Notes under the pieces: model-generated | What the model saw: only the letters and a program-made list of their open reading frames with translations | Databases searched by the model: none | What the model was told of the DNA's origin: nothing | In this document: positions 1 through 38,390 of the stretch, in pieces | Layout of the letters: each line of letters begins with the position of its first letter | Position numbering within the stretch: position 1 is the first letter of the stretch | Origin: a virus | IMG/VR virus record: IMGVR_UViG_3300045988_008627 | Length of the DNA stretch: 38,390 bases | Strand: one strand, 5' to 3' | Program-made: the position numbers and the translations under genes

Positions 1-163
1 CGATTTCCTTTTCTGTCATGGCGTGCCCTCCATTGCCTTCCCCCACGCGGCCAGTTGGGCGCGGATGGCTGCGCAGAGCCCGCACGATTTCCTTTTCTGT
101 CATGGCGTGCCCTCCATTGCCTTCCCCCACGCGGCCAGTTGGGCGCGGATGGCTGCGCAGAGC
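1..163. repeat. Perfect tandem duplication with an 84-bp period (1-79 = 85-163); it continues across the window ends (38308-38314 = 78-84)
   Basis: Direct reading: nt 1-79 are identical to 85-163. The unit contains the stop codon of the DUF3102 gene and the ATG of the DUF551 gene (ATGA overlap). 84 nt is 28 codons, so the duplication is in frame. Confidence 0.9.
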
Positions 164-5164: not shown

Positions 5165-5333
5165 TCTTCTTCGTCTCCTCCTGTTCCTGTTCCCGGCGGT
5201 ATCGTTCCGCCGCCCAGCGGGCAAAGGCGTCGATCACGGGTTCGCCGTTTTCTTCGCCGGGATGCTTAAATTCAAAAGTTTCGCCGGGGAGAAATCTCCC
5301 GTCCGGCCCCCGTTTCCCAAAAACGGCGATCAT
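5157..5333 (-). CDS. Hypothetical early protein (58 aa)
   Basis: ORF 5157..5390 trimmed to ATG 5333 (MIAVFGKRGPDGRFLPGETFEF), just downstream of the previous stop. Confidence 0.5.
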   Translation of the reverse strand: MIAVFGKRGPDGRFLPGETFEFKHPGEENGEPVIDAFARWAAERYRREQEQEETKKNG

Positions 5334-5337
5334 GGTC

Positions 5338-5484
5338 TCACGCCTCCTTCCGCTCCTCCTGCTTGCCTTCCTTCGCCAGCGCCATGCCATAGGCGATATC
5401 GCTCAGGCGCTGCATCTGCGCGGGCGTCAGCTTTTCGGTACTCTTGTTCAGGCTCTCGATGGCCTGCTTTTCCTTCTCGGACAT
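5338..5484 (-). CDS. First early gene (48 aa), not HTH-like
   Basis: ATG 5484 with GAGGTGAG upstream. It is the first ORF downstream of the minus-strand early promoter. Sequence: MSEKEKQAIESLNKSTEKLTPAQMQRLSDIAYGMALAKEGKQEERKEA. Confidence 0.55.
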   Translation of the reverse strand: MSEKEKQAIESLNKSTEKLTPAQMQRLSDIAYGMALAKEGKQEERKEA

Positions 5485-5537
5485 TTGTCTCACCTCACAT
5501 TTTTGTAAGTGTGTTATCAATTTCTTAAGCTGCTTAC

Positions 5538-5566
5538 ATCATACACTAAGCTAATTAACTTGTCAA
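5538..5566 (-). promoter_or_regulatory. Early (lytic) promoter
   Basis: On the minus strand: TTGACA (5566-5561), a 17-nt spacer, then TATGAT (5543-5538). It points into the early operon. Confidence 0.7.
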
Positions 5567-5597
5567 GCCCTATTTTTTAATTAACTTAATATTTTTC

Positions 5598-5626
5598 TTG
5601 ACTTTTGGTTGTCTGTGTGTTAAGCT
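5598..5626 (+). promoter_or_regulatory. Repressor (maintenance) promoter, extended -10 type
   Basis: TTGACT (5598-5603), a 17-nt spacer ending in TGT, then TAAGCT (5621-5626). It lies upstream of the AAAGGAGGG site and ATG 5649. Confidence 0.55.
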
Positions 5627-5648
5627 GGTTACATAAAGGAGGGATTCA

Positions 5649-6023
5649 ATGCAAACTTTTCAGGATCGGCTTCGCTCCCTGATTGATACGCTCGGCATTA
5701 CAAAAACAAAATTTGCCGAAGATCTGCACGTTTCGTCCGCATTTGTTTCCATGCTCTGTTCTGGCAAGTCTCAGCCAAGCGACCGCACGATAGCGGATAT
5801 TTGCCGGAAATATAATGTGAGCGAGACGTGGCTCCGCACCGGCGAGGGCGAAATGCGGCAGAAGCTGACACGGAATCAGGAGATTGCGGAGTTTATGGGC
5901 GTCGTGATGCACGATCCCGACGACGCGCCGCGCAAGCGGTTCGTATCGATCATCAGCAAACTCAGCGCCGACGAGTGGCGGCTGCTGGCTGAGATCGCAA
6001 AAAAAATGGCCGAGGACGAATAA
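5649..6023 (+). CDS. XRE-family HTH repressor (CI-like, 124 aa), no peptidase domain
   Basis: LRSLIDTLGITKTKFAEDLHVSSAFVSMLCSGKSQPSDRTIADICRKYNVSETWLRTGEGEM is a typical phage-repressor HTH. The gene is divergent from the early operon. The C-terminal 55 aa are too short for an S24 autocleavage domain. Confidence 0.8.
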   Translation: MQTFQDRLRSLIDTLGITKTKFAEDLHVSSAFVSMLCSGKSQPSDRTIADICRKYNVSETWLRTGEGEMRQKLTRNQEIAEFMGVVMHDPDDAPRKRFVSIISKLSADEWRLLAEIAKKMAEDE

Positions 6024-6044
6024 CCGTCCCCGGCCTATTTTTTA
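6008..6044. terminator. Bidirectional intrinsic terminator
   Basis: GGCCGAGGACG (6008-6018) pairs with CGTCCCCGGCC (6025-6035) at 10 of 11 positions. It is followed by TATTTTTTA on the plus strand and preceded by A8 (T8 on the minus strand). Confidence 0.7.
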
Positions 6045-6053
6045 TTCCCGCGC

Positions 6054-6176
6054 CTATGTGATCAGCGTCCGCATAAAGCGCCAGATCAGATCCAGATCCG
6101 CATCTGTGGCCAGCCGCAGCAGGCGTTTGATCTCTTTCAGCAGCAAATTCCGTTCCATTTCCATAAGTGCCTCCAT
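6054..6176 (-). CDS. Micro-ORF (40 aa from ATG 6176; 36 aa from ATG 6164, which has GGAGG 5 nt upstream)
   Basis: My own translation of the minus strand: MEALMEMERNLLLKEIKRLLRLATDADLDLIWRFMRTLIT, stop TAG at 6054-6056. It is below the ORF-track size cut-off. It sits between a LexA-box promoter and the bidirectional terminator. Confidence 0.45.
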   Translation of the reverse strand: MEALMEMERNLLLKEIKRLLRLATDADLDLIWRFMRTLIT

Positions 6177-6279
6177 TCTTCCACAAAAATCTCTTCTATT
6201 TTTTGTTTACTATTGCCGTTGAGGTTTTCTTCCATTTGATTTACAATTTAGATAAGATGTTCCTTTTCATCGCACGATT

Positions 6280-6308
6280 ATCATAGAACATCTGTTCTAA
6301 AATTACAA
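6280..6308 (-). promoter_or_regulatory. Sigma-A-type promoter whose spacer contains the LexA box
   Basis: On the minus strand: TTGTAA (6308-6303), the 17-nt spacer TTTTAGAACAGATGTTC, then TATGAT (6285-6280). Confidence 0.55.
6285..6298. promoter_or_regulatory. Candidate LexA (Cheo/SOS) box
   Basis: AGAACATCTGTTCT has the GAAC-N4-GTTC core of the Gram-positive LexA/DinR consensus CGAACnnnnGTTCG. Confidence 0.6.
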
Positions 6309-6354
6309 TTATGAGATTTTACAAAACTATCTTATAATAATTGGAGGTTTTGCC

Positions 6355-6876
6355 ATGAGGCAAGCATGGCGCAGGATATTGCTTGTGCTGGTCTGCTGCG
6401 TACTGGCTGTTGCCGGATGGATTGGGCTTTTGAATCTTGCGGAGGTTATTTCCGCCGCCCGCTCCTACAGGGCTTCGCCCGCGGAGCTTCGCGCGGCTGC
6501 GGATGCTGCTGTGCTTCCTGCCGCAGACCCGGCGTTTTCCGGCAGCGGGGAATACACAGACGTGGAGCAGGCCGAAGCGCAGGCGGAGTATTATGCCAGC
6601 ATCGGCGGCGACCCGCTTGATGTAGAGCCGCTGGAACCGATCATCGGTAAATTTGTATCCTATATCCCCGGCACGCTGCCCGCCGAGGCTCCGCAGATCT
6701 CCGCCTCGACGAGTGAAAACGTGCAGACATTTATCGTAAATACATCCAGCGGCGTTTTTCATCTGGCCAGCTGCTACCACATCCGCCAGATGGACTATGC
6801 AAACCGCAGCAGCTACACCGGCACCCGCGCCGAGGCTGCGGCTCTGTATACGCCGTGTAAGGATTGCAATCCATAG
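6355..6876 (+). CDS. Membrane-anchored protein with a C-terminal H/C-x-C zinc-motif domain (Ada-type metal-binding-like)
   Basis: GGAGG lies upstream of ATG 6355. N-terminal anchor is ILLVLVCCVLAVAGWIGLL. The C-terminus FHLASCYHIRQMDYANRSSYTGTRAEAAALYTPCKDCNP fits the recurrent H-x3-C...PC-x2-C-x-P motif. Confidence 0.65.
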   Translation: MRQAWRRILLVLVCCVLAVAGWIGLLNLAEVISAARSYRASPAELRAAADAAVLPAADPAFSGSGEYTDVEQAEAQAEYYASIGGDPLDVEPLEPIIGKFVSYIPGTLPAEAPQISASTSENVQTFIVNTSSGVFHLASCYHIRQMDYANRSSYTGTRAEAAALYTPCKDCNP

Positions 6877-6884
6877 GAGGGTTT

Positions 6885-7376
6885 ATGTACTGTAACAAAT
6901 GCGGCAAAGAGATCGACGACGAGGCTTTGATCTGCCCGCACTGCGGCTGCGGCACCGTGAATTATATCCGCGATCAGGCAAAGGCGGAGGCCCGCGTGCA
7001 GGTGCAGGCCGCACCGGCGCGGAAAAAGCGCTCGACTGCTCTGCTGCTTTGCATTTTTCTTGGCGGCCTTGGGGCGCACCGGTTTTATGTCGGCAAGATC
7101 TGGACGGGGCTTCTTTGGCTCTTTACGCTCGGCTTTTGGGGCATTGGCACGCTGGTTGATTTTTGCCGAATCTATGATAACAAATTTCCAGATGATGCAG
7201 GCCGCCCGCTCTATGACGAGTATACGGATGGTTTAACGCCCGAGGAATACGAGGAGGCCGTCGCCGGGCCGCGCAAGGTGCGAAAGATCGTGATCGTTGT
7301 TGCGCTTGCGCTGTGTGCCGGCTGCTTCTTGATCCTGCGCGTCATTCCGGGCCTGATGTACGCACTCGGCTTTTGA
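6885..7376 (+). CDS. Zinc-ribbon plus TM2-domain membrane protein
   Basis: AGGAGGG lies 3 nt upstream of ATG 6885. MYCNKCGKEIDDEALICPHCG is a zinc ribbon. LLLCIFLGGLGAHRFYVGKIWTGLLWLFTLGFWGIGTLVDF is the TM2-domain signature. There is an extra C-terminal TM segment. Confidence 0.8.
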   Translation: MYCNKCGKEIDDEALICPHCGCGTVNYIRDQAKAEARVQVQAAPARKKRSTALLLCIFLGGLGAHRFYVGKIWTGLLWLFTLGFWGIGTLVDFCRIYDNKFPDDAGRPLYDEYTDGLTPEEYEEAVAGPRKVRKIVIVVALALCAGCFLILRVIPGLMYALGF

Positions 7377-7381
7377 GATTC

Positions 7382-7419
7382 GCCCGCGCCGCTGGCCGAA
7401 CAACGGCGCGGGCTTTTTT
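7382..7419 (+). terminator. Intrinsic terminator
   Basis: GCCCGCGCCG (7382-7391) pairs perfectly with CGGCGCGGGC (7404-7413), followed by TTTTTT. Confidence 0.8.
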
Positions 7420-7543
7420 GCTTGCGCAGGCGACCGGGAGCCGTCTGTAACTATAGGATAGCCTGCCCATGGTAGACTTGTAAAGATATGACAGCTGCTT
7501 TTTGCAGTCAGACGTCTTGCTTTTTTAGGGGGAATGACATGTT

Positions 7544-7954
7544 TTGAAGGAAAAATTATCTGATTTGTGCCGTGAGCAGAAGCAGACGATCACTCCGCAC
7601 AAAACAAATCAGGATGTAGCCGAAAATACCGACCTTTCCGTCGGCACCGTATCCCAGTTCTTTCGCGGCGACATCAAAAATCCGTCTGTTTACACGGTCG
7701 GCCCGATCTGCCGGGAGATGGGCGTTTCTATGGATGAGTATTTCGGCATCCCGCATGACGAGCCTGCCGAGCCTTCCGATTCTGAAAAACTCCTCGCCGA
7801 GACTGCGGCGCTTCGTGCGCAGCTTGCCCAGCAGCAGAAGTCCCTGCGCATGCACCGGCTTGTGACGCTCATCCTCTTGGGTATTCTTTTGCTGTGTGCC
7901 CTTGCGCTTGTGGCCGACGTGCTCATCCCATCGATCGGCTGGATCCGCACATGA
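7544..7954 (+). CDS. XRE-type HTH protein with a coiled segment and C-terminal transmembrane anchor
   Basis: TTG start at 7544 with AGGGGGAA 9 nt upstream. The HTH is TNQDVAENTDLSVGTVSQFFRGDIKNPSVYTVGPICREMGVSMDEYFGI. The C-terminal TM segment is LVTLILLGILLLCALALVADVLI. Its stop overlaps the integrase ATG. Confidence 0.7.
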   Translation: MKEKLSDLCREQKQTITPHKTNQDVAENTDLSVGTVSQFFRGDIKNPSVYTVGPICREMGVSMDEYFGIPHDEPAEPSDSEKLLAETAALRAQLAQQQKSLRMHRLVTLILLGILLLCALALVADVLIPSIGWIRT

Positions 7955-9579
7955 AAATTACCGCCCCGGCCCGATCAGCCAGAGCGGTATCTTTGGAGGC
8001 TTTTGTGGATAATTTGAATCTTGCCAACGTCGTGATCTACGCCCGGTATTCTTCCGCCGGGCAAAATGACCAATCCATAGACGGCCAGCTTGCCAAATGC
8101 CGCGAATACGCGCAGCAGCGCGGATACCGCGTTGTCGGCGAATACTGCGACCGGGCGCTGTCCGGGCGATACGCCGAGACGCGGCCGGAGTTCCAGCGCA
8201 TGATTTCGGACAGCGCGAAGCACGCTTTTGATTTTGTGCTCGTGTGGAAGCTCGACCGCTTTTCCCGCGACCGGTATGACAGCGCGATCTACAAAAAGAA
8301 ACTGCGCGCGAACGGCGTGCGCGTCTTGTCCGTCACTGAGGGCGTCGGCGACAGCAGCGAGAGCGTGCTGCTTGAGGCGATCCTGGAGGCCATGGCAGAG
8401 GAATATTCCCGCCAGCTTGCCCAGAATGTCCGTCGCGGGATGCGCCAGAACGCCGAGAAGGGCCTGAGCCTCGGCGGCCTTGCCCCGCTCGGCTACCGCG
8501 TCGTGAATAAGCAGTACGAGATCAACGAGGACGAAGCCCGCATCGTCCGCTTTATCCATGAGCAGTATGCCGACGGCGCAGGGCAAAAGCAGATCGTGGC
8601 CGACTGCGCACGGCTGGGCTACCGTAATCAGCGCGGGAACCCGCTCACATTAGCCTCGGTAAAGCGTATCCTTGCAAACGAGCGGTATGCCGGCAGGTAC
8701 GACTACCTCGGCGAGATCGTGATCGAGGACGCATTCCCGGCCATCGTCTCAAAGGATCTGAAAAAGCGCGTGCGCGACCGGCTCAAGGCGAATGCCAGGG
8801 CTCCCGGCCATGCAAAGGCGAAAGTTGAATATCTGCTGCATGGAAAGCTGTTCTGCGGCGAGTGCGGCGCGCCGATGATAGGGGAGTGCGGGCGCGGCAG
8901 GCACGGAGCGACGTATTACTATTACACCTGCGCGGCGCGGAAGAAGCAGCACACCTGCAAAAAGCGCAATGAGCGCAAGGACGAACTCGAAGCCTGTATC
9001 GTGGATTATATCGGCTCGTGCGTCCTGACGGACAGCTGGATCGACGGCGCAGCCGAGCGTGTTGTGGCGGAATATCAAAAAAGCTACGACGCTTCCGGCA
9101 TTAAACCGCTCGAAAAGCAGATCCGCGACGCCGACAAGGAGATCGATCAGCTTGTCGATGCGCTGATCTCCGCAACGGCGGAAGCTGCCCGCCGCAGGAT
9201 CAACGAGCGCATTGAAACTGCCGAGGCCCGAAAGCAGGCGCTGGAGGCCGATCTTGCATCCCTCCGCATCGCCAGCCGTGTCCAGATCAAAAAAGAGGAC
9301 ATCGTCGTATGGCTCAACCAGTTCCGCACTGGCGACCGATCCGATCTGGAATACCGCAAAAAGGTTATAGATTTATTTGTAAATTCGATTTATTTGTATG
9401 ATGATACATTTAAGTTGTTTTTAAATGTCACCGATTCCACGCAAATCACCTACTCTGATTCCCTCGCCCTCGCGCCTCCCTCCGTTTCGGATTTCGGCGC
9501 GTCCGGTGTACCAGATATGCACTTATCCGAACACATCATATTTGTAAATGGTGTTATTGGGATGATCGTGCAGAGATGA
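7951..9579 (+). CDS. int: Large serine recombinase (phage integrase)
   Basis: VVIYARYSSAGQNDQSIDGQ is the resolvase catalytic motif. It is followed by a recombinase domain, the zinc ribbon CGECGAPMIGECGRGRHGATYYYYTC and a coiled coil. ATG 7951 is in ATGA overlap with the upstream gene. An alternative start is GTG 8005, with GGAGG 5 nt upstream. Confidence 0.9.
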   Translation: MKITAPARSARAVSLEAFVDNLNLANVVIYARYSSAGQNDQSIDGQLAKCREYAQQRGYRVVGEYCDRALSGRYAETRPEFQRMISDSAKHAFDFVLVWKLDRFSRDRYDSAIYKKKLRANGVRVLSVTEGVGDSSESVLLEAILEAMAEEYSRQLAQNVRRGMRQNAEKGLSLGGLAPLGYRVVNKQYEINEDEARIVRFIHEQYADGAGQKQIVADCARLGYRNQRGNPLTLASVKRILANERYAGRYDYLGEIVIEDAFPAIVSKDLKKRVRDRLKANARAPGHAKAKVEYLLHGKLFCGECGAPMIGECGRGRHGATYYYYTCAARKKQHTCKKRNERKDELEACIVDYIGSCVLTDSWIDGAAERVVAEYQKSYDASGIKPLEKQIRDADKEIDQLVDALISATAEAARRRINERIETAEARKQALEADLASLRIASRVQIKKEDIVVWLNQFRTGDRSDLEYRKKVIDLFVNSIYLYDDTFKLFLNVTDSTQITYSDSLALAPPSVSDFGASGVPDMHLSEHIIFVNGVIGMIVQR

Positions 9580-37953: not shown

Positions 37954-38333
37954 AAATCCACCTCCGGTGCTTCCGGCGGCGGCATCCAGTGAGTAATCAA
38001 GTTCTGCGGTACCTCCCAGTTATCGCACGTCCATCCGTCGCTCGGAAAGTATCTTGCCATATCTACAATCGAGCCGCCCGCGTCCCGAAAAGCAACGAGA
38101 TATTTGCTGAGACGGTCTATTGGCAGTCTGTCCTCCACGCTGATCCACTGCGGCACCTTCTCCCGCAGCGCCGCGTTCTCGGCGGTCAGGCGCTCGATTG
38201 CGTTAGCTGCCGCAAACTCGATGTATTCCCGCCGATCTTGGATTTCTCCGACCTTGCAGTTTTCGCACGCGTCGTCGTGTCCAAGCCCCTTCGCGCAGCA
38301 CCGCAGCGCCCGCACGATTTCCTTTTCTGTCAT
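37950..38333 (-). CDS. DUF551-domain protein; may carry a 28-aa N-terminal extension through the duplicated junction
   Basis: WISVEDRLPIDRLSKYLVAF...ITHWMPPPEAP is the DUF551 signature. ATG 38333 is the copy of the ATG that overlaps the DUF3102 stop. The frame stays open upstream to the window end and, after circular closure, to ATG 103. Confidence 0.7.
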   Translation of the reverse strand: MTEKEIVRALRCCAKGLGHDDACENCKVGEIQDRREYIEFAAANAIERLTAENAALREKVPQWISVEDRLPIDRLSKYLVAFRDAGGSIVDMARYFPSDGWTCDNWEVPQNLITHWMPPPEAPEVDL

Positions 38334-38390
38334 GGCGTGCCCTCCATTGCCTTCCCCCACGCGGCCAGTTGGGCGCGGATGGCTGCGCAG
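38308..38390. repeat. Terminal direct repeat with the window start (38315-38390 = 1-76 = 85-160; 38308-38314 = 78-84)
   Basis: Direct comparison of the two ends. The DUF551 gene start at the right end is the continuation of the DUF3102 stop at the left end. Confidence 0.9.

Follow-up and report, generated by a model that had tools for sequence, protein, structure and literature searches.

A predicted LexA-controlled micro-protein gene converges on a non-cleavable repressor in a temperate phage of gut Oscillospiraceae

Introduction

In the 'extended arbitrium' Bacillus phages phi106, phiW23, BMBtp14, Wbeta and Waukesha92, a repressor, AimC, is paired with a small antagonist, AimX (bioRxiv 10.1101/2025.11.23.689978; PDB 9sf2, 9iaq). 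AimC is a helix-turn-helix (HTH) repressor of 80-140 amino acids (aa) with a helical C-terminal domain and without an autocleavage domain; AimX is 29-80 aa long and mostly helical, and in phi106 its gene follows shortly after a LexA site and is convergent with aimC (bioRxiv 10.1101/2025.11.23.689978). AimX blocks both the oligomerisation and the DNA binding of AimC, forming a heterodimer with its C-terminal domain, and stop-codon and recoding mutants have shown that the active product is the AimX protein and not an antisense RNA (bioRxiv 10.1101/2025.11.23.689978). Here we analyse IMGVR_UViG_3300045988_008627, a viral DNA of 38,390 nucleotides (nt) that we refer to as the window, in which a micro-ORF (open reading frame; 6054-6176, minus strand), preceded by a predicted LexA box, converges on the gene for a short HTH repressor (5649-6023, plus strand).

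We regard AimX/AimC as the closest known system. In the window, as in the Bacillus phages, the small ORF (36-40 codons) runs towards the 3' end of the gene for the repressor; the repressor is short and combines an HTH with a helical C-terminal domain (predicted) and no autocleavage domain; a predicted LexA site lies upstream of the small ORF, as in phi106; and the small proteins are highly divergent, tracking the repressor's C-terminal domain. By analogy, the mechanism in the window would also be a C-terminal-domain heterodimer that blocks oligomerisation. There are differences, however. The window has no upstream, co-directional aimR/aimP: the genes upstream of the micro-ORF are encoded on the other strand, and their only Pfam domains, where they have any, are of the TM2/zinc-ribbon, HTH and serine-recombinase kinds. 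Nor is there an HTH-containing, AimL/Cro-like first early gene. The two genes of the window are split by a bidirectional terminator, whereas those of AimX and AimC overlap; the host belongs to the Clostridia (Oscillospiraceae) rather than to Bacillus; the micro-protein has no detectable homology to AimX, and the match to AimC is that of a generic HTH. Finally, the function of AimX/AimC has been shown by experiment, while that of the window pair is predicted.

Coliphage 186 Tum is reportedly a LexA-controlled antirepressor. The Gifsy-type antirepressors are also LexA-controlled (PMC3121763), and Sar of SPbeta/phi3T is a beta-rich DNA-mimic dimer that targets an integrase-fold repressor (bioRxiv 10.1101/2025.11.27.690993). 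What the window would share with these systems is their logic, namely a non-cleavable repressor, a LexA-repressed antirepressor gene and release by the SOS response; here, too, a predicted LexA operator overlaps the promoter of the micro-ORF. Those antirepressors, on the other hand, are proteins of ~100-150 aa, unrelated in sequence and fold to the 36-aa hairpin of the window, the presumed target of which is the C-terminal domain of an XRE repressor. Another set of comparators is provided by the transcription factor-small ORF (TF-smORF) modules, and Qtip, of Vibrio plasmid-like phages: their products (~55-60 aa, without homologues) inactivate cI without proteolysis and are connected to interchangeable inputs (PMC10432266). 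The effector family of the window is similar in that it is connected to LexA in some lineages but to different promoters elsewhere; in contrast, the smORFs are triggered by an adjacent transcription factor, independently of SOS, and the cI repressors that they oppose are cleavable. SinI/SinR of Bacillus subtilis (PDB 1b0n) offers a further parallel, in which the helical C-terminal multimerisation domain of an HTH repressor meets a small helical antagonist, and SinR is among the weak Foldseek matches to the window repressor. SinI is, however, homologous to the C-terminal hook of SinR, whereas homology between the window peptide and the repressor tail is not detectable, and SinI/SinR is neither phage-borne nor LexA-controlled.

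Results

A micro-protein gene under purifying selection

The micro-ORF comprises 40 codons when read from ATG 6176 (ORF list; translation MEALMEMERNLLLKEIKRLLRLATDADLDLIWRFMRTLIT). An earlier reading of this DNA, made from its letters without database searches (the sequence-only reading), had drawn attention to a GGAGG placed 5 nt upstream of an internal ATG at 6164. This Shine-Dalgarno element is present (6170-6174, minus strand), and the likelier true product is therefore the 36-aa protein that starts at ATG 6164, MEMERNLLLKEIKRLLRLATDADLDLIWRFMRTLIT. It is the 36-aa form that gene callers have picked in many metagenomes, and the ribosome-binding motif GGAAGAATGGRGG is conserved across types of the gene.

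That the ORF is translated into a functional protein is supported by its pattern of substitution. Pairwise ratios of nonsynonymous to synonymous change (dN/dS) lie between 0.28 and 0.88 in frame, with synonymous sites saturated in the distant pairs; in the two shifted frames, nearly all comparisons give values of ~1 or more. At least five sequence types share the motif AT-x3-(L/I)(D/E)L(V/I)WRF. A profile search of 5.8 billion proteins recovered 79 unnamed relatives (34-68 aa) without a Pfam domain, and an exhaustive HMMER scan of 1.84 billion representatives produced 42 clusters with lengths of 30-74 aa, save for one repetitive match of 700 aa. Judged by these comparisons, the micro-ORF is a genuine, stand-alone micro-protein gene under purifying selection, and the sequence-only reading was right to treat it as real. 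Two other ORFs on the same strand were considered and rejected: the frame of a 32-aa upstream ORF (6137-6235) is not kept among relatives, and a 74-aa ORF with a TTG start (5962-6186), which is frame-shifted relative to the micro-ORF, displays no coding constraint.

AlphaFold2 models the micro-protein as a helical hairpin (helices 2-22 and 25-39) with a mean predicted local distance difference test (pLDDT) score of 94. The protein is charged and amphipathic, with a net charge of +1, a mean hydropathy near 0 and no transmembrane segment; a membrane toxin or division inhibitor of the TisB/SidA type was rejected as a candidate identity, being a hydrophobic transmembrane peptide rather than a charged amphipathic hairpin. 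The family has no match in Pfam or PHROG. A profile search of the PDB returned designed helical bundles and chance matches and no AimX chain, and Foldseek found no match to the model. Homology to Tum, Ant/KilAC, Bro-N or Sar is absent from the Pfam, PHROG and PDB sequence and fold searches.

An SOS box in the promoter spacer

The sequence-only reading had placed a 14-mer, AGAACATCTGTTCT (6285-6298), inside a minus-strand promoter of the form TTGTAA-17-TATGAT, and our analysis bears this out: the promoter scan scored the pair of hexamers (-35, 6303-6308; -10, 6280-6285) at 9/12. The 14-mer contains a predicted LexA (SOS/Cheo-type) box, the core of which, GAACATCTGTTC (6286-6297), takes up the 12 nt at the 3' end of the 17-nt spacer, right up to the -10 hexamer. 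The box fits the clostridial LexA consensus GAACnnnnGTT[CT]: the LexA operators are given as GAACnnnnGTT[C/T] for Clostridium species and as GAAC-N4-GTTC for Bacillus subtilis (PMC4234289). There are two copies of GAAC-N4-GTTC in the 38.4-kb window against 0.57 expected, and none of the relaxed clostridial form GAAC-N4-GTTT. The second copy (24123) lies in the late-gene region, which is dense with long ORFs, and the box at 6286-6297 is the sole canonical SOS box of the genome within a recognisable promoter. Bearing in mind that box statistics from a single window are weak, its significance has to rest on conservation.

A search of IMG/VR with the repressor yielded 74 loci at 57-100% identity, nearly all of which have both box and micro-ORF, the box sitting 257-269 nt past the repressor stop codon. 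The succession of TTGTAA, 5 nt, box and -10 is found in 65 of the 73 loci that have the micro-ORF. Throughout these 65 loci of the window's promoter type the -35 TTGTAA is unchanged, and the -10 alternates between TATGAT and TAATAT. The arms of the box are invariant among these IMG/VR relatives save for two AAAC variants, which still fit the clostridial GAACnnnnGTTT on the opposite strand; the central N4 exists in five variants and the 5-nt linker in eight. The same design recurs in distant lineages that we reached through homologues of the micro-protein, and in which leaders and repressors are strongly diverged: the promoters read TTGATT-TTATA-AAACGAATGTTC-TAATAT in L083, TTGATT-GTCCC-GAACAGATGTTC-TATAAT in L087 and TTGCAC-ATATC-GAACATACGTTC-TGAAAT in L088. 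Five diverged lineages in all have in common the layout TTGnnn, 5 nt, GAAC-N4-GTTC, TAnnAT; the -10 elements of relatives are TATGAT, TAATAT or TATAAT, all of the form TAnnAT, with L088 (TGAAAT) as the exception. The co-occurrence of box and micro-ORF in relatives, to which the sequence-only reading had attached weight, holds in these five lineages with the same geometry and breaks down in at least five others, which have no box (see Discussion).

This pattern of conservation indicates that promoter and box are under selection, and we infer LexA/SOS control of the promoter from the sequence and from these comparisons; the micro-ORF is very probably a LexA-regulated gene. No repressor operator was found near its promoter.

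Coupling to a repressor without a peptidase domain

The product of 5649-6023 is an XRE/CI-type repressor of 124 aa (Pfam and PHROG). Its Pfam matches are confined to HTH_3, HTH_19 and Phage_CI_repr, in agreement with the earlier observation that it has no S24 peptidase domain. AlphaFold2 (pLDDT 89.6) predicts a five-helix HTH (residues 1-65) followed by C-terminal helices at 75-87, 93-103 and 107-123. Against 9sf2_A, the phi106 repressor-AimX complex, the repressor aligns over residues 7-70 only, that is, over the HTH (E = 1e-6); the full-length Foldseek match is weak (E = 8e-3, root-mean-square deviation 11 A), and 9iaq (AimC) is also among the matches, weak and mainly HTH-driven. A search with the repressor's C-terminal domain alone gave 5 close matches only and did not help in constructing a profile.

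Micro-ORF and repressor gene are convergent, with their coding ends ~30 nt apart. This arrangement extends well beyond close relatives: the micro-ORF converges on a ~120-aa HTH repressor in six of eight distant lineages (L080-82, L083, L084, L085/86, L087 and L088), as the sequence-only reading would lead one to expect of a gene tied to non-cleavable HTH repressors, and each of the 80 loci that the micro-ORF motif retrieved from IMG/VR has a member of the repressor family downstream. The integrase beside the micro-ORF is of the serine type in the window, L080 and L087, and of the tyrosine type in L084, L085, L088 and L170. Sequence comparison establishes selection on the gene together with conservation of the promoter/box geometry and of the synteny with the repressor.

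A further observation is that the subtype of the micro-protein tracks the subtype of the repressor C-terminal domain and not the type of HTH. Micro-proteins with LDLVWRF pair with repressors that end in ...SKLSxDEWxLLAEIAKKM; those with QLCI(I/V) pair with ...ELPPEFWxExEKFxKK, and there the HTH is of the METINQRI type (L088) or of the MNERI type (L080). This pairing fits co-evolution of the micro-protein with the C-terminal domain. The latter is itself nearly constant: at least five HTH immunity types are carried on one C-terminal domain, residues 60-124 of which are nearly invariant across relatives. In L001-L074 the repressor is a mosaic, at least five unrelated HTH halves being joined to a near-identical C-terminal half at a conserved WLRTGEGEM; immunity specificity has therefore apparently been swapped by intragenic recombination.

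One proposal of the sequence-only reading found no statistical support, namely that the amphipathic helix of the peptide mimics the repressor's own C-terminal tail. The motifs do align in the register that had been proposed, but hhalign assigns the pair a probability of 1.5% (P = 0.03), which is not significant; the three pairings among the profiles of micro-protein, repressor C-terminal domain and early 48-aa protein (see below) gave 1.5%, 6.6% and 9.4%, none of them significant.

Terminator and leader

Between the two genes lies an intrinsic terminator hairpin (6008-6035) that the terminator scan scores as bidirectional, with a T-run on either strand (plus, 6036-6044; minus, 5999-6007); the sequence-only reading had already noted it. 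The hairpin is common to the transcripts of repressor and micro-ORF, and its stem has been kept through compensatory changes in L014 and L068.

Transcription of the micro-ORF would begin near 6273, leaving a leader of ~100 nt (6177-6272, minus strand). Directly 5' of the ribosome-binding site the leader contains an inverted repeat, ACAAAAA-N11-TTTTTGT (6183-6207), which is conserved in sequence and free of compensatory changes (alignment, RNAalifold), and which also occurs in the L014 and L080 lineages that have no box. A structured leader is not apparent: RNAalifold gives a weak A-U hairpin only, without covariation. Since the repeat is conserved without covariation, it may either bind a protein or form a weak translational hairpin.

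Early region, lysogeny module and phage genome

The early promoter (TTGACA-17-TATGAT, 5566-5538, minus strand; promoter scan) diverges from that of the repressor, and putative operators, TTAAGCTG(C/G)TTACAT, flank the two at 5525-5539 and 5620-5634. The 'cro' position is taken by the first early gene (5338-5484, minus strand); its product is a helical protein of 48 aa (MSEKEKQ...LTPAQMQRLSDIAYGMALAKE...), which has no HTH and no match in Pfam or PHROG, in line with the earlier remark that no Cro-like HTH is visible in the early operon. It is nearly invariant across at least five HTH immunity types of the repressor, which makes an operator-specific Cro an unlikely identity for it. The tail of the protein, KLTPAQMQRLSDIAYGM, bears a weak likeness to that of the repressor, KLSADEWRLLAEIAKKM (hhalign P = 0.006, not significant).

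On the other side, the lysogeny module (5649-9579, plus strand) consists of the XRE repressor, a 173-aa membrane protein, a TM2 protein, an HTH protein with a transmembrane helix and a large serine recombinase. The 173-aa protein (6355-6876) has a membrane helix in its N-terminal part and, in its C-terminal part, a Cys-rich motif (...ASCYH...CKDC). It occupies a moron slot that is filled by other genes in relatives; at the equivalent position in L088 is a protein with a weak Ada_Zn_binding match. Directly upstream of the recombinase (7894-9579; Pfam), and overlapping it, is the gene for the XRE-type HTH protein with a C-terminal transmembrane helix (7544-7954). This placement is conserved in L080-82, and the protein may act on the module as a second regulator, anchored in the membrane. 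Among the scanned ORFs of the lysogeny module and early region, Pfam detects neither an ImmA/M78 peptidase nor an Ant/Bro domain. An Rfam search of 5300-7700 retrieved no known RNA family, the sole match being a sub-threshold, spurious microRNA.

The first and last 76 nt of the window (1-76 and 38315-38390) are identical, and we therefore take it to be a complete, circularly permuted phage genome of ~38.3 kb; its GC content is 57.6%. Outside the lysogeny module the long ORFs are mostly on the minus strand. The only match to a host genome was an uncultured Oscillospiraceae metagenome-assembled genome, and a search of GenBank phages gave partial matches to unannotated fecal phage contigs only. 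The window is a temperate phage from a gut Oscillospiraceae host.

Discussion

We hypothesize that an SOS-induced, LexA-controlled micro-protein disables the non-cleavable repressor through its C-terminal domain, an account that we consider probable, with moderate confidence in the mechanism as a whole. In the lysogen, host LexA bound at 6286-6297 would keep the minus-strand promoter off. Upon DNA damage, RecA-stimulated self-cleavage of LexA would allow the promoter to fire, giving a transcript of ~270 nt that would run from ~6273 to the bidirectional terminator and encode a single 36-aa helical hairpin. By analogy with AimX/AimC, this hairpin would most likely bind the repressor's conserved three-helix C-terminal domain; binding would prevent the oligomerisation that the repressor requires to hold its operators, and the early promoter at 5566-5538 would be released. 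Since the repressor has no autocleavage domain, the micro-protein would be the link from SOS to prophage induction. It is from synteny, from subtype covariation and from the close precedent of AimX/AimC that we infer inactivation of the repressor. In outline, the sequence-only reading was largely right: the LexA-box micro-gene and its synteny with the repressor stand, while tail mimicry lacks statistical support, antisense action is unlikely, and the claim that the candidate is far smaller than known antirepressors has been overtaken by an AimX of 29 aa.

Several observations weigh against this mechanism. The covariation of subtypes is confounded by the physical linkage of two genes whose coding ends are ~30 nt apart. 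The micro-ORF has no LexA box in L014/15, L080-82, L084 and L085/86; in L068-72 it is another ORF, of 61 aa and 1.2 kb away, that the LexA-box promoter drives; and in L077-79/L170 and L089 the micro-ORF is internal to a co-directional operon and does not converge on an HTH repressor. No sequence homology of the micro-protein to AimX, SinI, Tum or a Pfam or PHROG family is detectable, and the conserved ~100-nt leader is left unexplained by the model. Considering the lineages without a box and those with operons, the link between box and ORF is therefore lineage-specific. The exceptions are consistent with an effector whose inputs can be exchanged, as they are in the smORF and AimX systems.

The exceptional lineages have features of their own. 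In L014/15 and L080-82 the upstream region differs and combines a good -10 with a poor -35. In L084 (1820-1850), the promoter TTGAAT-17-TATGAT has a palindrome, ATACAAC-N5-GTTGTAT, at the position of the LexA box in the spacer, which suggests a different repressor input. For L085/86 our scan gave no LexA box and no recognisable promoter. In L068 (4545-4774, minus strand), TTGAAA-17-TAAAAT with GAACGAACGTTC in the spacer precedes the 61-aa ORF, which has no homologue in the window; the micro-ORF of L068-72 has no recognisable box or sigma-70 promoter. In L170 (468-11374; also L077-L079), an integrated element of ~11 kb has an early operon whose second gene encodes a micro-protein homologue of 35 aa, and it also encodes a tyrosine integrase, HTH_17, AAA_25, a large terminase and a ribbon-helix-helix-like repressor with four TATTGCGCAATA palindromes. 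The element looks like a phage satellite, and the homologue could therefore be a P4-epsilon-like inducer of a helper prophage.

Of the other explanations, the one that survives best is that the SOS-induced micro-protein acts on a different target, be it LexA, RecA or the cell-division machinery. Kil and SidA are small SOS- or prophage-encoded division inhibitors. Small phage proteins that interact with LexA also exist, such as GIL01 gp7, which modulates it (PMC4551915). LexA control of the micro-ORF is well supported, and the repressor is a deduced target; in L077/L170 and L089, moreover, the gene resides in early operons without an adjacent HTH repressor of the window family. Convergence on the 3' end of a single repressor family, in phages with serine integrases and in phages with tyrosine integrases alike, would nevertheless be hard to explain for a factor directed at the host. 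The absence of a transmembrane segment from this charged amphipathic hairpin also counts against it, and a different target would leave the phage without an SOS route to its non-cleavable repressor. We consider this explanation unlikely.

We find it more doubtful still that the active product is an RNA, or transcription itself, such that SOS-induced convergent transcription would disturb expression of the repressor and the ORF would be incidental. The genes are convergent and have a terminator hairpin in common, and aimX transcripts were once proposed to act in antisense; antisense transcription at the 3' end of the repressor gene was also part of the sequence-only reading. Purifying selection at the level of the protein is not accounted for in this way, however, with ATxxxLDLVWRF near-invariant amid saturated synonymous change, and the AimX mutants point to a protein. 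Antisense action is also made unlikely by the conserved bidirectional terminator, the compensatory changes of which have preserved a structure that limits the overlap of the transcripts to the hairpin itself (~28 nt).

It is highly improbable that the SOS box governs, instead of the micro-ORF, the divergent plus-strand gene or genes from 6355 onwards (membrane and moron genes, integrase), an outcome that the sequence-only reading had set against its own proposal. ATG 6355 is 58 nt downstream of the box, and the promoter scan marks promoter-like plus-strand sites at 6219-6247 and 6311-6338. However, these -10/-35 candidates are without conservation, whereas the geometry of box and hexamers is fixed on the strand of the micro-ORF only. 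The box is not tied to a plus-strand gene because both neighbour and spacing vary: loci with the same box and promoter are followed by the 173-aa protein, a TM2 protein or other ORFs, and distant lineages have an integrase gene or an unrelated ORF in the divergent position, at ~75-230 nt from the box (~58-230 nt with the window included). Least probable of all is that the micro-protein is an SOS-induced recombination directionality factor (excisionase): although the window has a large serine recombinase (7894-9579), and small factors of this kind serve serine integrases (SprB, TP901-1 Orf7), the family occurs beside both serine and tyrosine integrases, with no single cognate type, and the position of the micro-ORF tracks the repressor and not the integrase.

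Returning to inactivation of the repressor by the micro-protein, a broader conjecture, which we offer with considerable reservation, is that the whole switch runs on protein-protein contacts around a constant repressor C-terminal domain while immunity-specific HTHs are swapped, the 36-aa SOS hairpin and the 48-aa early protein that replaces Cro, both near-universal, acting there. The target domain and the micro-protein are common to at least five immunity types, and one induced prophage could therefore derepress heteroimmune co-residents in trans. On this view, the satellite-like L170 element could use its homologue of the micro-protein to induce a helper prophage.

Since late 2025 there has been an experimental description of this design, in Bacillus phages; what is new here is a family unannotated in databases, in phages of gut Clostridia, with LexA as its sole visible input. 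How prophages sense DNA damage in the dominant gut Clostridia is largely unknown, and many repressors there have no cleavage domain. An unannotated family of micro-proteins of 33-40 aa now gains a specific, testable role, and metagenomes gain a signature for SOS-inducible prophages: TTGnnn, 5 nt, GAAC-N4-GTTC and TAnnAT, ahead of a micro-ORF that converges on a ~120-aa HTH repressor. The logic of a micro-antirepressor set against a non-cleavable XRE repressor may reach beyond the Bacillus arbitrium phages, with LexA alone as the input here and other inputs in some relatives.

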